Part shown: positions 4,328-57,119 of the stretch, piece after piece | How the letters are laid out: each line of letters opens with the position of its first letter | Position numbering within the stretch: position 1 is the first letter of the stretch | Sequence record: MZ234025.1 | Direction: 5' to 3' (one strand) | Source of the DNA: Escherichia phage vB_EcoM-172859UKE1 | DNA: 64,000 nt | Made by a program: the position numbers and the translations under genes | The notes under the pieces: generated by a model | Seen by the model: only the letters and a program-made list of their open reading frames with translations | Databases searched by the model: none | Told to the model about the DNA's origin: nothing

Positions 4328-4996
4328 ATGATCGATAAAGACTATATTGAAGAGTTACGTGCTCTTTCTGATAAAAAGGAAGCCAAAGCTAAACTGTTTG
4401 AATATGCGGAACAATTTGGCATTAGTGTTAAGAAAACAAAATCATTCGATAATATTGTTATTGATATCGAAGAAGCTCTTAACGCACTGGCTGATGAACC
4501 ATTACCTGAAACTGATGGATTATCTATCACTGATTTAATTACTGCCGCAGACGATGTGGACGGTGTTAATTTCACCAACGAAGAAGTTAAAGAAGAAGCT
4601 ATTCTGTTGTTTGATTCTCCAACAGAACAAGTTGAAGTATTAGAAGTTGTCGAACAAGAAAAAGAATTCGACCATGATAAATTCGAAGAAGCAATTACTC
4701 AGGTTGTTGAATCTGAAAAAGAGCCTGAGTCAGAGGTAAATAAAGAAGTAAAATTTGTTCTGCCTGAAAATTTTAGTCCTACGCTCATTAAATTAGGCAA
4801 AGGCCTAGGATATGTTACTGTTCCTTGGTGGATTTATCAATGGATAGCCGAAACCCCAGATTGGAAATCTCGCCCAACTAGTTTTGTGCATGCTTCTGCT
4901 CACCAAACATTATTTAGCTTAATTTATTATATTAATCGCGATGGATCAGTTCTAATTCGTGAAACTCGTAATTCTTCTTTCGTAACATTAAAATAA
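4328..4996 (+). CDS. inh: Inh, inhibitor of prohead protease gp21
   Basis: 222 aa, acidic N-terminal half; size and position (between uvsW and hoc) match T4 Inh. Confidence 0.75.
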   Translation: MIDKDYIEELRALSDKKEAKAKLFEYAEQFGISVKKTKSFDNIVIDIEEALNALADEPLPETDGLSITDLITAADDVDGVNFTNEEVKEEAILLFDSPTEQVEVLEVVEQEKEFDHDKFEEAITQVVESEKEPESEVNKEVKFVLPENFSPTLIKLGKGLGYVTVPWWIYQWIAETPDWKSRPTSFVHASAHQTLFSLIYYINRDGSVLIRETRNSSFVTLK

Positions 4997-5005
4997 GGAT
5001 AACTT

Positions 5006-5785
5006 ATGGCTTTTACAGTTGATATAACTCCTAAAACACCTACTGGAGTTATAGATCAGACTCAGCAGTTTACTGCTACACCCAGTGGTCAAACTGGAGA
5101 TGGACCTATTACATATGCTTGGACTGTAGATGATGTTCCACAAGATGGAGCTGAAGCAACTTTTAGTTATGTACTAAAAGGACCTGCCGGTCAAAAGACT
5201 ATTAAAGTAGTTGCAACAAACCCAGTCCTAGACGCTGAAGCTGAAACAGCAGAAGCTACTACAACTATCACAGTTCAAAATAAGACACAAACGACCACCT
5301 TAGCTGTAACTCCTAATAGCCCTGACGCTGGAGTAATTGGAACAGCTATTGAATTTACTGCTACTTTAGCTTCGCAGCCATCGGGCGCAAACGCTACTTA
5401 TCAATGGTATGTAGATGATTCTCCTGTGGGCGAAGCAACTAACGCTACGTTCAATTACACTCCTGCCGAAAGCGGGGTAAAAAGAATTAAGTGTGTGGCT
5501 CAAGTAACTGCGACAGATTATGATGCACTAAGCGTTACTTCTAATGAAGTATCACTGACTGTTAATAAAAAGACACAGACAACTACTTTGGCAGTAACTC
5601 CCGATAGTCCTTCAGCTGGAGTAATTGGAACCCCAGTTCAATTTACTGCTGCCTTAGCTTCTCAACCAGTTGGAGCGTCTGCTACGTATCAGTGGTATGT
5701 AGATGATTCACAAGTTGGTGGAGAAACTAACTCTACATTTAGCTATACTCCAACTACAAGTGGAGTTAAAAAATTAAATGCGTAG
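5006..5785 (+). CDS. hoc: Hoc outer capsid protein, N-terminal part (Ig-like domains 1-3), ended by a frameshift
   Basis: Tandem Ig-like repeats (TQTTTLAVTP...YQWYVDD...); frame ends at TAG 5783-5785 after an A6 run; continues in another frame (see 5863..6423). Confidence 0.8.
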   Translation: MAFTVDITPKTPTGVIDQTQQFTATPSGQTGDGPITYAWTVDDVPQDGAEATFSYVLKGPAGQKTIKVVATNPVLDAEAETAEATTTITVQNKTQTTTLAVTPNSPDAGVIGTAIEFTATLASQPSGANATYQWYVDDSPVGEATNATFNYTPAESGVKRIKCVAQVTATDYDALSVTSNEVSLTVNKKTQTTTLAVTPDSPSAGVIGTPVQFTAALASQPVGASATYQWYVDDSQVGGETNSTFSYTPTTSGVKKLNA

Positions 5786-5859
5786 CCCAAGTAACCGCGG
5801 CAGATTATGATGCAAAGGAAGTTACTTCTAATGAAGTATCATTAACGGTTAATAAGAAG
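5281..5859 (+). repeat. Tandem direct repeat (2 x ~289 bp) encoding duplicated Hoc Ig-like domains
   Basis: Copy 1 about 5281-5570 and copy 2 about 5571-5859 align at the nucleotide level at most positions (identity not computed). Confidence 0.8.
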
Positions 5860-5862
5860 ACA

Positions 5863-6423
5863 ATGAATCCACAGGTTACATTGACTCCTCCTTCTATTAA
5901 CGTTCAGCAAGATGCTTCAGCTACATTTACCGCTAATGTCACTGATGCTCCAGAAGAAGCGCAAATTGCGTATTCATGGAAGAAAGATTCTTCTCCTGTA
6001 GAAGGATCAACTAATGTATATACCGTTGATACCTCATCTATTGGAAGTCAAACTATTGAAGTTACTGCAACTGTTACTGCTACTGATTATGATAGCAAAA
6101 CTATTACAGCAGAAGGTCAAGTTCAGGTAACTGATAAAGTTGCTCCAGAACCAGAAGGTGAATTACCTTATGTTCATCCTCTTCCACATCGTACTTCAGC
6201 TTACATCTGGTGCGGTTGGTGGGTTATGGATGAAATCCAAAAAATGACTGAAGAAGGTAAAGATTGGAAAACTGAAGATCCAGATAGTAAATACTACCTG
6301 CATCGTTACACTCTTCAGAAGATGATGAAAGACTACCCAGAAGTTGATGTTCAAGAATCACGTAATGGATACATCATCCATAAAACTGCTTTGGAAACTG
6401 GTATCATCTATACATATCCATAA
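5863..6423 (+). CDS. hoc: Hoc outer capsid protein, C-terminal part (4th Ig-like domain plus capsid-binding domain)
   Basis: C-terminus ...WCGWWVMDEIQKMTEEGKDW...ETGIIYTYP as recalled for T4 Hoc; this frame is open back to 5770, overlapping the upstream frame. Confidence 0.8.
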   Translation: MNPQVTLTPPSINVQQDASATFTANVTDAPEEAQIAYSWKKDSSPVEGSTNVYTVDTSSIGSQTIEVTATVTATDYDSKTITAEGQVQVTDKVAPEPEGELPYVHPLPHRTSAYIWCGWWVMDEIQKMTEEGKDWKTEDPDSKYYLHRYTLQKMMKDYPEVDVQESRNGYIIHKTALETGIIYTYP

Positions 6424-38444: not shown

Positions 38445-38894
38445 ATGGCCTACTCTGGTAAATGGGTCCCAAAAAATTTAAAAAAATACCGTGGAGACCA
38501 TACCAAAATAACGTATCGTTCAAACTGGGAAAAATTCTTTTTCGAATGGTTGGATAAAAATCCAGAAATTATTGCATGGGGTAGTGAAACAGCAGTAATT
38601 CCATATTTTTGTAATGCTGAAGGTAAGAAACGTCGATACTATATGGACATATGGATGAAAGATGCATCAGGTCAAGAGTTCTTTGTAGAAATAAAACCAA
38701 AGAAAGAAACTCAGCCACCTATTAAGCCTGCAAATCTTACTACCGCAGCAAAGAAACGTTATATGAATGAAATATATACCTGGTCTGTGAACTGCGACAA
38801 ATGGAAAGCTGCCTCAGCTGTTGCTGAAAAGAGAAATATAAAATTTCGAGTTCTAACCGAAGATGGTCTTAGAAAACTCGGATACAAGGGGTAA
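38445..38894 (+). CDS. 4: Head completion protein gp4
   Basis: 149 aa from ATG 38445 (strong AGGAGG SD); the ORF-track start at 38301 spans the promoter. Confidence 0.85.
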
Positions 38895-44273: not shown

Positions 44274-44583
44274 AAGCCGGGTCGCTACCGGCAAGTCGTC
44301 GGACTGATGTTCCCTGAGTAAGGACTGGTCTTAATAAATCTTTACGATTTGTTAATATCCCCTTACATCACAGCAGAAACGGCGCACCGAATTATCGATT
44401 CGAGGAAATATCTTTGCCGTAAGCCGAGTAGCGTTTTTGACGGAACGTTCGGATATGGTCGAGATATGGCCTTTTAAAAATATTGAGTAGCGTCAACTGC
44501 TTAATAACCGGGTTCGAATCCCGGCGTTTCGTACAAACACTTGCCTTAGCAGGTGGAACCCCGACAAGGTTGCCGCAAGGCTT
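44274..44583 (+). ncRNA. Candidate stable noncoding RNA region next to the tRNA genes
   Basis: About 310 nt without a credible ORF, GC-richer than surroundings, tRNA-like T-arm CCGGG-TTCGAAT-CCCGG at 44508-44524, ends at a strong terminator; analogous to T4 stable RNAs by position. Confidence 0.3.
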
Positions 44584-44612
44584 AGCCCCTTCCGAAAGGT
44601 CGGGGCTTTTTG
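44584..44612 (+). terminator. Rho-independent terminator
   Basis: AGCCCC...GGGGCT hairpin followed by TTTTT; near-identical copy at 60733. Confidence 0.7.
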
Positions 44613-44656: not shown

Positions 44657-45121
44657 ATGAAATCATACGCTGAATTTTTGACTGAACAATCTAGTTCAGA
44701 TGTAAAAGCCGCTGCGATTGCAGCAATTCAAGCAGGTAAATATTCTTACAAAGACGCCTCTGATGAAGAACGTTTCCGTTTTATTAGAGATTTTAAAGCC
44801 GAAGGTTTTACTAATGCTAATACTGTTAGCCGAGTTTTTAAAAGCCTAGCTGCATCAGGTGAATTGTTCCAGAAAGCTACAGGTAAAGCACCTGCGCCAA
44901 AAACAGACCCTAAAGCAGCTCAAGAAAAAAATATCGCCAAAGGAATTATTTCTAAGTATGAAGCAATTCTTAAAGAGCTTTTAGTAATCAAAACAGAAGG
45001 CCAGAAACTGGCACGAGCACATAGCTTCAAAGATAATCCTCACGCTCATAGCCTTGAGTATGTTGAAGATATCCAAAAACTTATTAAAGACCGTATCTGG
45101 TCTGCTAAACAAATTAAATAA
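44657..45121 (+). CDS. Internal-protein-like protein with CTS-like N-terminus (154 aa)
   Basis: N-terminus MKSYAEFLTE resembles the T4 capsid targeting sequence MKTYQEFIAE. Confidence 0.55.
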   Translation: MKSYAEFLTEQSSSDVKAAAIAAIQAGKYSYKDASDEERFRFIRDFKAEGFTNANTVSRVFKSLAASGELFQKATGKAPAPKTDPKAAQEKNIAKGIISKYEAILKELLVIKTEGQKLARAHSFKDNPHAHSLEYVEDIQKLIKDRIWSAKQIK

Positions 45122-55998: not shown

Positions 55999-56361
55999 AT
56001 GAAAGCATATCAAATTCTTGAAGGTGAACATAAAGGCACTATTTATTTTGAAGACGGTACTCAAGCCCGGATTATTGTCTCTAAGACTTTTAAAGAAGAC
56101 GCTATTGTAGATCCAGAAATTTTCTACGGTTTGAATGCTCGTGAAATTGAAATTGAACATCAACCTAAAGTTAAAATTGAAGGTGGTCAACACCTGAACG
56201 TTAACGTTCTGCGTCGCGAAACTCTGGAAGATGCAGTTAAGCATCCGGAAAAATATCCGCAGCTGACCATCCGTGTATCCGGTTATGCAGTTCGCTTTAA
56301 CTCTCTGACTCCGGAACAGCAGCGCGACGTTATCGCTCGTACCTTTACCGAGAGTCTATAA
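55999..56361 (+). CDS. Autonomous glycyl radical cofactor GrcA/YfiD-like protein
   Basis: 120 aa; C-terminal ~60 residues ([60 protein letters not shown]) match recalled E. coli GrcA; host-like codon usage there. Confidence 0.85.
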
Positions 56362-56585: not shown

Positions 56586-56820
56586 AGACATCAAAGGCTA
56601 CAAGCCGCATACCGATGATAAAATCGGTAAAGTGAACGCTATTAAAGATGCCGAAGTTCGTTTAGGACTTATTCTAGACGCCCTGGCAGAAGAAGCATTA
56701 TCAGCAAATACTCCTGAAGCTCTGACGGCTTTGTCCCAATTGAACTGTGCTAAAGAACGCCTAAAGGAATCTAGTATGTGGGCTTGTCGTGCGGTATTTC
56801 AACCAGAGGAAAAATACTAA
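56575..56820 (+). CDS. Hypothetical protein (81 aa)
   Basis: ATG 56575 after GAGGAA SD; the ORF-track start at 56407 overlaps the upstream gene. Confidence 0.5.
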
Positions 56821-57119
56821 TGGCTCAAATCCTATCAGGCTTTGGAACTCATTATGAAGCATCTCGACGCATAACTGAAAGCAATCCTTTTGGCCTTGTT
56901 CCGAAGCACAAGAAAATTCAAAGCCTTGATGACTTTGAGAATCGCTTATGGGCCCTCTTTAATGAGTACAAGGCATATCTGAAAGAAGACGCTGACGATT
57001 GTCTTGAAGAAGATGAGATTGCGTATTACGAACAACGCCTTGAACAGCTCAAGAACTTCCACCAGGTTCGTGACGAAGTATCTAAAGCAGTTAAAAAGTT
57101 AATTCCTTTCAAAGAGTAG
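56820..57119 (+). CDS. Hypothetical protein (99 aa)
   Basis: ATG 56820 after AGAGGA SD; the ORF-track start at 56778 is less likely. Confidence 0.5.

Follow-up and report, generated by a model that had tools for sequence, protein, structure and literature searches.

We analysed a 64,000-nucleotide (nt) stretch of the genome of Escherichia phage vB_EcoM-172859UKE1 (MZ234025.1), hereafter the window, in which the capsid protein gene hoc is split over two reading frames at a run of six adenines (A6; other runs are written in the same way). This phage is the single Mosigvirus from wastewater in Loose et al. 2021, and its record of 168,667 base pairs derives from Illumina MiSeq sequencing (2x300, 600-cycle kit), SPAdes assembly and Prokka annotation (PMC8614997). 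The 5' reading frame of hoc on the + strand, 5006-5785, is closed by the TAG codon at 5783-5785, where a preliminary description of this DNA had placed the Hoc stop. Its product of 259 amino acids (aa) consists of native Hoc residues 1-256 followed by the out-of-frame residues L-N-A. The A run spans exactly 5768-5773, with TT on either side. In the -1 frame a TAA codon at 5767-5769 is followed by sequence that is open from 5770 to the TAA at 6421-6423 and ends ...ETGIIYTYP, which agrees with the continuation described earlier. Addition of one A to the run yields a 1419-nt hoc encoding a 472-aa Hoc, and the restored junction, ...SGVKKIKCVAQV..., parallels its counterpart in an upstream repeat of the same gene, ...SGVKRIKCVAQV. 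Compared with intact relatives, hoc contains no further stops or indels 3' of the run. Relatives that are in frame carry A7 or AAAAAGA at this site, so that both the 1-nt deficit of the run and the seventh A needed to repair it had been correctly identified. The immunoglobulin (Ig)-like string and the capsid-binding domain of Hoc do not lie in a single intact frame, the break being at 5768-5785. The features of the locus are the following.

5006-5785 (+): 5' reading frame of hoc, 259 aa, identical to QZI80110.1
5006-5281 (+): Ig-like domain 1, residues 1-92, from alignment to T4 Hoc residues 1-92
5282-5569 (+): repeat copy 1, Ig-like domain 2a, residues 93-188, which T4 lacks, from the repeat comparison
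5477-5488 (+): copy-1 paralogue of the frameshift site, GTA AAA AGA ATT, in frame, with a G interrupting the run
5570-5856 (+): repeat copy 2, Ig-like domain 2b, orthologue of T4 domain 2, 287 nt, holding the frameshift
5768-5773 (+): A6 run, putative -1 deletion site; the in-frame parental allele is A7 (GTT AAA AAA ATT)
5783-5785 (+): premature TAG made by the frameshift
5770-6423 (+): rest of hoc, in the -1 frame
5857-6132 (+): Ig-like domain 3, restored residues 285-376, from Pfam and T4 Hoc alignment
5863-6423 (+): 186-aa open reading frame (ORF) with the last Ig domain and the capsid-binding domain, identical to QZI80111.1
6133-6420 (+): C-terminal capsid-binding domain, restored residues 377-472, equivalent to T4 Hoc 281-376, from alignment and PMC10385173
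6428-6455 (+): terminator-like GC hairpin and T tract, directly after hoc
4328-4996 (+): inh (inhibitor of prohead protease), conserved upstream neighbour, identical to QZI80109.1

Three proteins that follow one another in MZ234025 are identical to Inh and to the 259-aa and 186-aa products, and the two pieces of hoc already stand in that record as two 'capsid and scaffold protein' coding sequences. The gene order inh - hoc - 24.3 - 24.2 - rnlB is common to the window, T4, teqskov, F31 and PST. The restored Hoc matches T4 Hoc (NP_049793, 376 aa; PDB 5VF3 chain Z, 8T1X) with E = 1e-219 and more than 90% identity in the aligned parts, and its residues 377-472 are nearly identical to T4 Hoc 281-376, the capsid-binding part of the protein (PMC10385173). 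The Pfam models PKD, Ig_2, PKD_3 and PKD_4 reach their cut-offs over restored residues 111-373, and further Ig-family models stay below theirs. Neighbour order and alignment bear out the earlier naming of the gene and indicate that it is hoc in the form of a frameshifted allele. The closest whole-region matches among the phage records searched (F31, moskry, G53 and mar005P1) reach only 98%.

We consider the break to be a genuine frameshift allele of hoc at the DNA level in vB_EcoM-172859UKE1, with a probability of about 0.8. The presence of the A6 in the phage DNA itself is deduced from the deposited consensus. MiSeq reads assembled with SPAdes rarely miscall an A7 consensus, hence the platform supports a real A6. 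The integrity of the other frames was checked by searching 148 F31 ORFs of at least 70 aa, taken from the homologous 65 kb, against the window. Setting aside an 84-aa ORF within a replaced, divergent segment, hoc alone was found split over two frames, and other uncompensated single-base indels relative to F31 look intergenic or lie at the edges of divergent segments. The window contains 27 A6, 19 T6, two A7 and one T7 runs; the A7 runs (38480-38486 and 44925-44931) sit, both in frame, within ORFs that comprise a homologue of the tail completion and sheath stabilizer protein and a 154-aa ORF. In mobillu, BEU50 and ECO111 5-P the identical 70-nt haplotype carries an in-frame A7, and the copy-2 site of PST reads A7 as well. 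Of note, two window indels relative to F31 were listed without annotation comparison. One, near 56164, reads CC in the window and CCC in F31 and adjoins about 400 nt (56702-57109) without F31 alignment, in which the 84-aa F31 ORF is only partly matched; the other, at about 44078, lies by the 3' end of a 55-aa F31 ORF.

The same A6 was found in a second genome, PM105 (MZ234041), a bred Tequatrovirus of the same study (PMC8614997) with a library and an assembly separate from those of 172859UKE1. A 466-nt block of the window (5603-6068), A6 included, is 100% identical in PM105, while outside this block the two are 75-82% identical (50 kb compared). No further record among the 50,697 searched exceeded 98.3% over the block. 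Positions 1-475 of PM105 hoc match the ancestor CHD16UKE1, 476-1064 match the window save for a CHD16UKE1-like patch at 569-598, and 1065-1158 match CHD16UKE1 again. This mosaic fits real recombination, and the A6 haplotype was therefore dominant in the second library. The A6 is probably shared by PM105 and the window by descent. The patch of about 590 nt from 172859UKE1 hoc (476-1064) is joined on its left out of register (+1), within the A run, and its presence implies an undeclared parent or a contaminated breeding mix. A second stretch identical in PM105, window 44367-44589, was considered as another recombinant patch and discarded as uninformative, since it is the ultra-conserved rnaC/rnaD region. 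In 479 phage records these 223 nt occur with 99% identity or more; RB27 and RB33 annotate them as rnaC/rnaD (T4 stable RNAs), and no Rfam family was found in them at gathering score.

Lesions at equivalent positions were found in other T-even phages. In-frame relatives carry two alleles, with A runs displaced by one base relative to each other: GTA AAA AGA ATT (T4, teqskov, F31, CHD16UKE1) and GTT AAA AAA ATT (mobillu, PST). The lesions are concentrated in the S-G-V-K-K/R-I codons of copy 2 (window 5760-5776) or at the copy-1 paralogue of these codons (5472-5488), as listed below.

Copy 2, 172859UKE1 and PM105: A6 (-1)
Copy 2, NHEP10: A8 (+1), annotated as two coding sequences
Copy 2, FriedrichMiescher (BASEL collection): G5 for G4, immediately upstream (+1), annotated 'Hoc part 1/2'
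Copy 2, T6: GTTAAAAAGAATT, 13 nt versus 12 (+1), byte-identical in AP018814 and MH550421
Copy 2, ECCR664: A4 for A5 (-1)
Copy 1, 101117BS1 (wild isolate) and its bred progeny PM107 and PM108: A6 (-1)
Copy 1, UPWr_E2 (separate GenBank submission): A6 (-1)
Copy 1, PM105: GTT+AAAAAGAATT (+1), exactly at the CHD16UKE1/172859UKE1 junction

The hoc gene of T6 (1132 nt, +1 lesion GGAGTTAAAAAGAATT) is entered as two coding sequences in one record and is unannotated in the other. A single lesion, G5 near hoc nt 39 in PST, lies away from the S-G-V-K-K/R-I sites. In this Yersinia phage (KF208315), where relatives have G4, hoc is annotated from an internal start only (930 nt). Broken hoc alleles appear to be sporadic and not the norm, because the copy-1 A7 haplotype is in frame in about 45 listed records and shortened to A6 in a single lineage. 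Ascertainment was biased in that some of the lesion cases came from queries centred on the site; whole-gene or protein-cluster lists supplied 101117BS1, UPWr_E2, FriedrichMiescher, T6, NHEP10 and PST. All in all the site appears to be a hot spot of mutation, in a gene that the phage can do without. No paper on this pattern emerged from a literature search on hoc frameshifts or pseudogenes, and scans of IMG/VR, where these phages are not represented, gave no hit to the A6, A7 or A8 allele. Among the bred phages checked, hoc is broken in three of six (PM105, PM107 and PM108, not PM123, PM133 and PM136) versus one of the four ancestors. This ancestor, 101117BS1, contributes 2-8% of the PM105, PM107, PM108 and PM133 genomes. 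The excess of broken hoc in bred phages could be due to chance or to Hoc loss being favoured under breeding conditions.

We propose that A6 arose from A7 by replication (polymerase) slippage in what would have been the longest homopolymer of hoc. Translation would then halt 10 nt past the run, leaving a 259-aa fragment with Ig domains 1, 2a and most of 2b. A frameshift may also arise when the two offset allele types recombine out of register, which would account for the hybrid junctions in T6 and in PM105 copy 1. Virions of this phage are predicted to carry little or no Hoc. Because Hoc is not needed for growth, its loss would be tolerated. The lesion appears to be recent because the 650 nt downstream are otherwise intact, and in principle it could revert by the same slippage. 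In T2, T4 and T6, ±1 variants arise at about 3e-4 per population in homopolymers of six bases or more and revert readily, and the 2025 preprint that reports this refers to such runs as contingency loci (10.1101/2025.10.21.683753). The only possible C-terminal product is predicted to be the 186-aa ORF from the ATG at 5863, the sole ORF with a start codon in the -1 frame of hoc. This ATG is preceded, at a distance of 3 nt, by a weak ribosome-binding site, TAAGAAG. Natural short Hoc-like proteins made of one Ig domain and the binding domain do exist (PMC10385173).

The preliminary description had left open whether the break was a sequencing error, a genuine pseudogene or the sign of slippage-dependent expression. 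Loss of one A from the consensus of a phage that truly has A7 would be the classic type of homopolymer error. The exact 259-aa product is known from MZ234025 only, its 90% cluster adding just a PM105 fragment, and contamination shared with PM105 is conceivable given their common laboratory. Furthermore, some records with lesions here look of low quality, such as ECCR664, a 134-kb 'complete genome' in which hoc is broken in several places. We nevertheless judge such an artefact unlikely, and not only on account of the sequencing platform. All other genes are intact across two other coding A7 runs and 46 A6/T6 runs, and the A6 block is dominant in the PM105 library within a fine recombination mosaic that is unlike low-level contamination. 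Equivalent lesions are moreover inherited, as in PM107 and PM108 from 101117BS1, and both genome records of T6 show one and the same lesion. Misassembly across the tandem repeat was also considered and judged unlikely by reasoning, as copies with 76% identity should be too divergent to confuse MiSeq/SPAdes. Less probable still is an evolved expression mode in which programmed -1 frameshifting or transcriptional slippage would produce both full-length and truncated Hoc. A -1 shift in AAA AAA would restore the conserved ...VKKIKCVAQ..., slippage of P-site tRNA-Lys on A runs does occur in E. coli, and Ig-like domains are reportedly appended via programmed frameshifts in some phage structural proteins. 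The zero-frame sequence GTT AAA AAA TTA, however, gives T AAA AAA and not a canonical X XXY YYZ heptamer, and after the shift the P-site tRNA would re-pair to UAA. No stimulatory structure was found in the 87 nt 3' of the run (5774-5860), with a minimum free energy of -14 versus -12.7 +/- 2.6 kcal/mol for shuffled sequences (z = -0.49), and the upstream GGAG is conserved Ser-Gly coding in both repeats and not a dedicated signal. The split is not conserved either, relatives being in frame (A7/AAAAAGA) and A6 being found in PM105 only, and the shift falls within an Ig domain and not at a domain boundary. Efficient transcriptional slippage typically needs A/T runs of about 9 or more, and A6 is well under this length. 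Lacking heptamer, structure and conservation, programmed frameshifting was rejected, and low-level spontaneous slippage would not be an evolved mode of expression. Of the three possibilities the deposited sequences thus favour a genuine mutation.

A further possibility accepts the same DNA mechanism and adds selection for switchability: the paralogous A7 tracts would be kept as reversible ON/OFF switches of capsid decoration, A6 being the OFF phase. The gene has a homopolymer of at least 6 nt within an ORF and shows recurrent ±1 variants in independent lineages, as contingency loci do; in unrelated isolates these are A6 (window) and A8 (NHEP10) in copy 2 and A6 (101117BS1, UPWr_E2) in copy 1. 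T-even homopolymers of at least 6 nt act reversibly in agt and rIIA (Gomez, Barrick & Waters 2025). The main text of that paper (10.1101/2025.10.21.683753) does not name hoc. Mucus adherence and the high antigenicity of Hoc make ON/OFF heterogeneity potentially relevant (PMC10385173, PMC11853027), and the excess of broken hoc among bred phages points the same way. Yet most copy-2 alleles are the stable, interrupted AAAAAGA, the exact A7 haplotype being found in 3 records only, and the ratio of about 45 in-frame copy-1 A7 records to one A6 lineage is what a neutral hot spot predicts. In addition, A7 is short for a dedicated switch, ascertainment was partly site-centred and the numbers are small. 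Selection of this kind therefore seems doubtful for the tracts. We also regard as speculative, with a small chance of being right, the broader idea that the paralogous A tracts together with the offset GTT-A7 and GTA-A5-G alleles, which give out-of-register hybrids, form an ON/OFF capsid switch in T-even phages. If it were true, populations would hedge between Hoc+ virions, mucus-adherent and highly antigenic, and Hoc- virions, with A6 as OFF.

Some points weigh against a genuine and inactivating frameshift allele of hoc. The A6 base count rests on the deposited consensus, and the mutation may date from isolation or propagation instead of from nature. The evidence from PM105 is not fully independent, as it comes from the same laboratory, and cross-contamination may have occurred; the four ancestors declared for the breeding do not include 172859UKE1 (PMC8614997). 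As to the product, ribosomal or transcriptional slippage on A6 may give low levels of full-length Hoc, and a putative 186-aa 'mini-Hoc' may be started at the ATG at 5863.

The frameshift lies in the second copy of a tandem repeat with a 288-nt period, whose in-frame units are 5282-5569 and 5570-5856, the latter 287 nt long because of the deletion in the A run. The restored Hoc aligns to T4 Hoc as residues 1-111 and 189-472. T4 residues 93-111 are matched twice, which means that the window Hoc has one extra 96-aa Ig-like unit and, as predicted in the preliminary description, four Ig-like domains, one above T4. T4 domain 2 is 92.7% identical to copy 2 versus 80.2% to copy 1, and the unit that T4 lacks is therefore copy 1. 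The tandem copies noted earlier are real, but 'closely' aligning was generous, since they share 76% DNA identity and 80% protein identity. They differ at 69 of 288 positions, of which 15, 11 and 43 are at codon positions 1, 2 and 3, a distribution that marks prolonged purifying selection on each of the two. Identity between either copy and its orthologue in teqskov, F31, NHEP10, PST and PM105, which represent two genera, is 89-99%, and the four-Ig hoc is present in both Tequatrovirus and Mosigvirus. With the 1418-nt hoc as query, coverage is 80% or more in approximately 600 of about 660 phage records that match, a threshold that a T4-like short hoc would fail as it would cover just about 79.7%. 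We infer that four-Ig hoc is the majority form among T-even phages and that T4 has a short minority form. The extra Ig domain thus appears to be old and common, and the recent domain duplication suggested earlier is not supported, given the number of differences, the purifying selection and a long form common to two genera. The number of Ig domains in Hoc proteins was already known to vary from one or two up to ten (PMC10385173, PMC11853027).

What follows for annotation is that the two 'capsid and scaffold protein' coding sequences of MZ234025 would be one frameshifted hoc. The predicted lack of Hoc matters for a collection of therapy candidates, as Hoc influences mucus adherence and immunogenicity. 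The Hoc status often differs among natural and laboratory T-even stocks, and hoc is broken at one short site or its paralogue in independent T-even genomes, the classical T6 included. The two coding sequences are already visible in GenBank, the gene is of the common four-Ig form, and the mutational mechanism is classical, with nothing new in it. The added value is modest and consists in the recurrent hot spot at paralogous positions of a duplicated Ig domain and in the link to contingency loci, for which the hoc tract is an easily assayed candidate.

Compared with known systems, the interrupted gene has the same genome position as T4 hoc and encodes the same string of Ig-like domains followed by a C-terminal capsid-binding domain, but it has the extra 96-aa unit (four Ig versus three) and the frameshift, and the T4 site reads GTA AAA AGA ATT, with a G breaking the run. 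The 472-aa 'large head outer capsid protein' or Hoc of teqskov, mobillu, F31 and CHD16UKE1 is closer still, with four Ig domains, 1419 nt and 95-98% nucleotide identity, and this architecture spans several hundred further Tequatrovirus and Mosigvirus records; these genes are intact, whereas hoc in the window is one A short. The other split hoc genes (T6, FriedrichMiescher, NHEP10, ECCR664, the 101117BS1 lineage, UPWr_E2, PM105 and PST) likewise carry ±1 lesions in a dispensable gene. The lesions themselves differ (A8, G5, A4 or the hybrid GTT+AAAAAGAATT), and the A6 of the window is shared by PM105 only. The proposed slippage in an A run of a conditionally dispensable ORF resembles the homopolymer hot spots of T-even phages (Streisinger rII and e; agt, rIIA), where ±1 null alleles are able to revert, which for hoc is proposed only; the agt run (bases 288-296, 9 nt) is longer than the hoc tract. 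Finally, the locus shares overlapping frames, an A-rich site and a -1 shift that restores the protein with programmed -1 frameshifting systems (dnaX A AAA AAG; the tail chaperone G/GT; T7-like 10A/10B), but differs from them in having neither a canonical heptamer nor a stimulatory structure nor a conserved split, so that the likeness is one of resemblance only.

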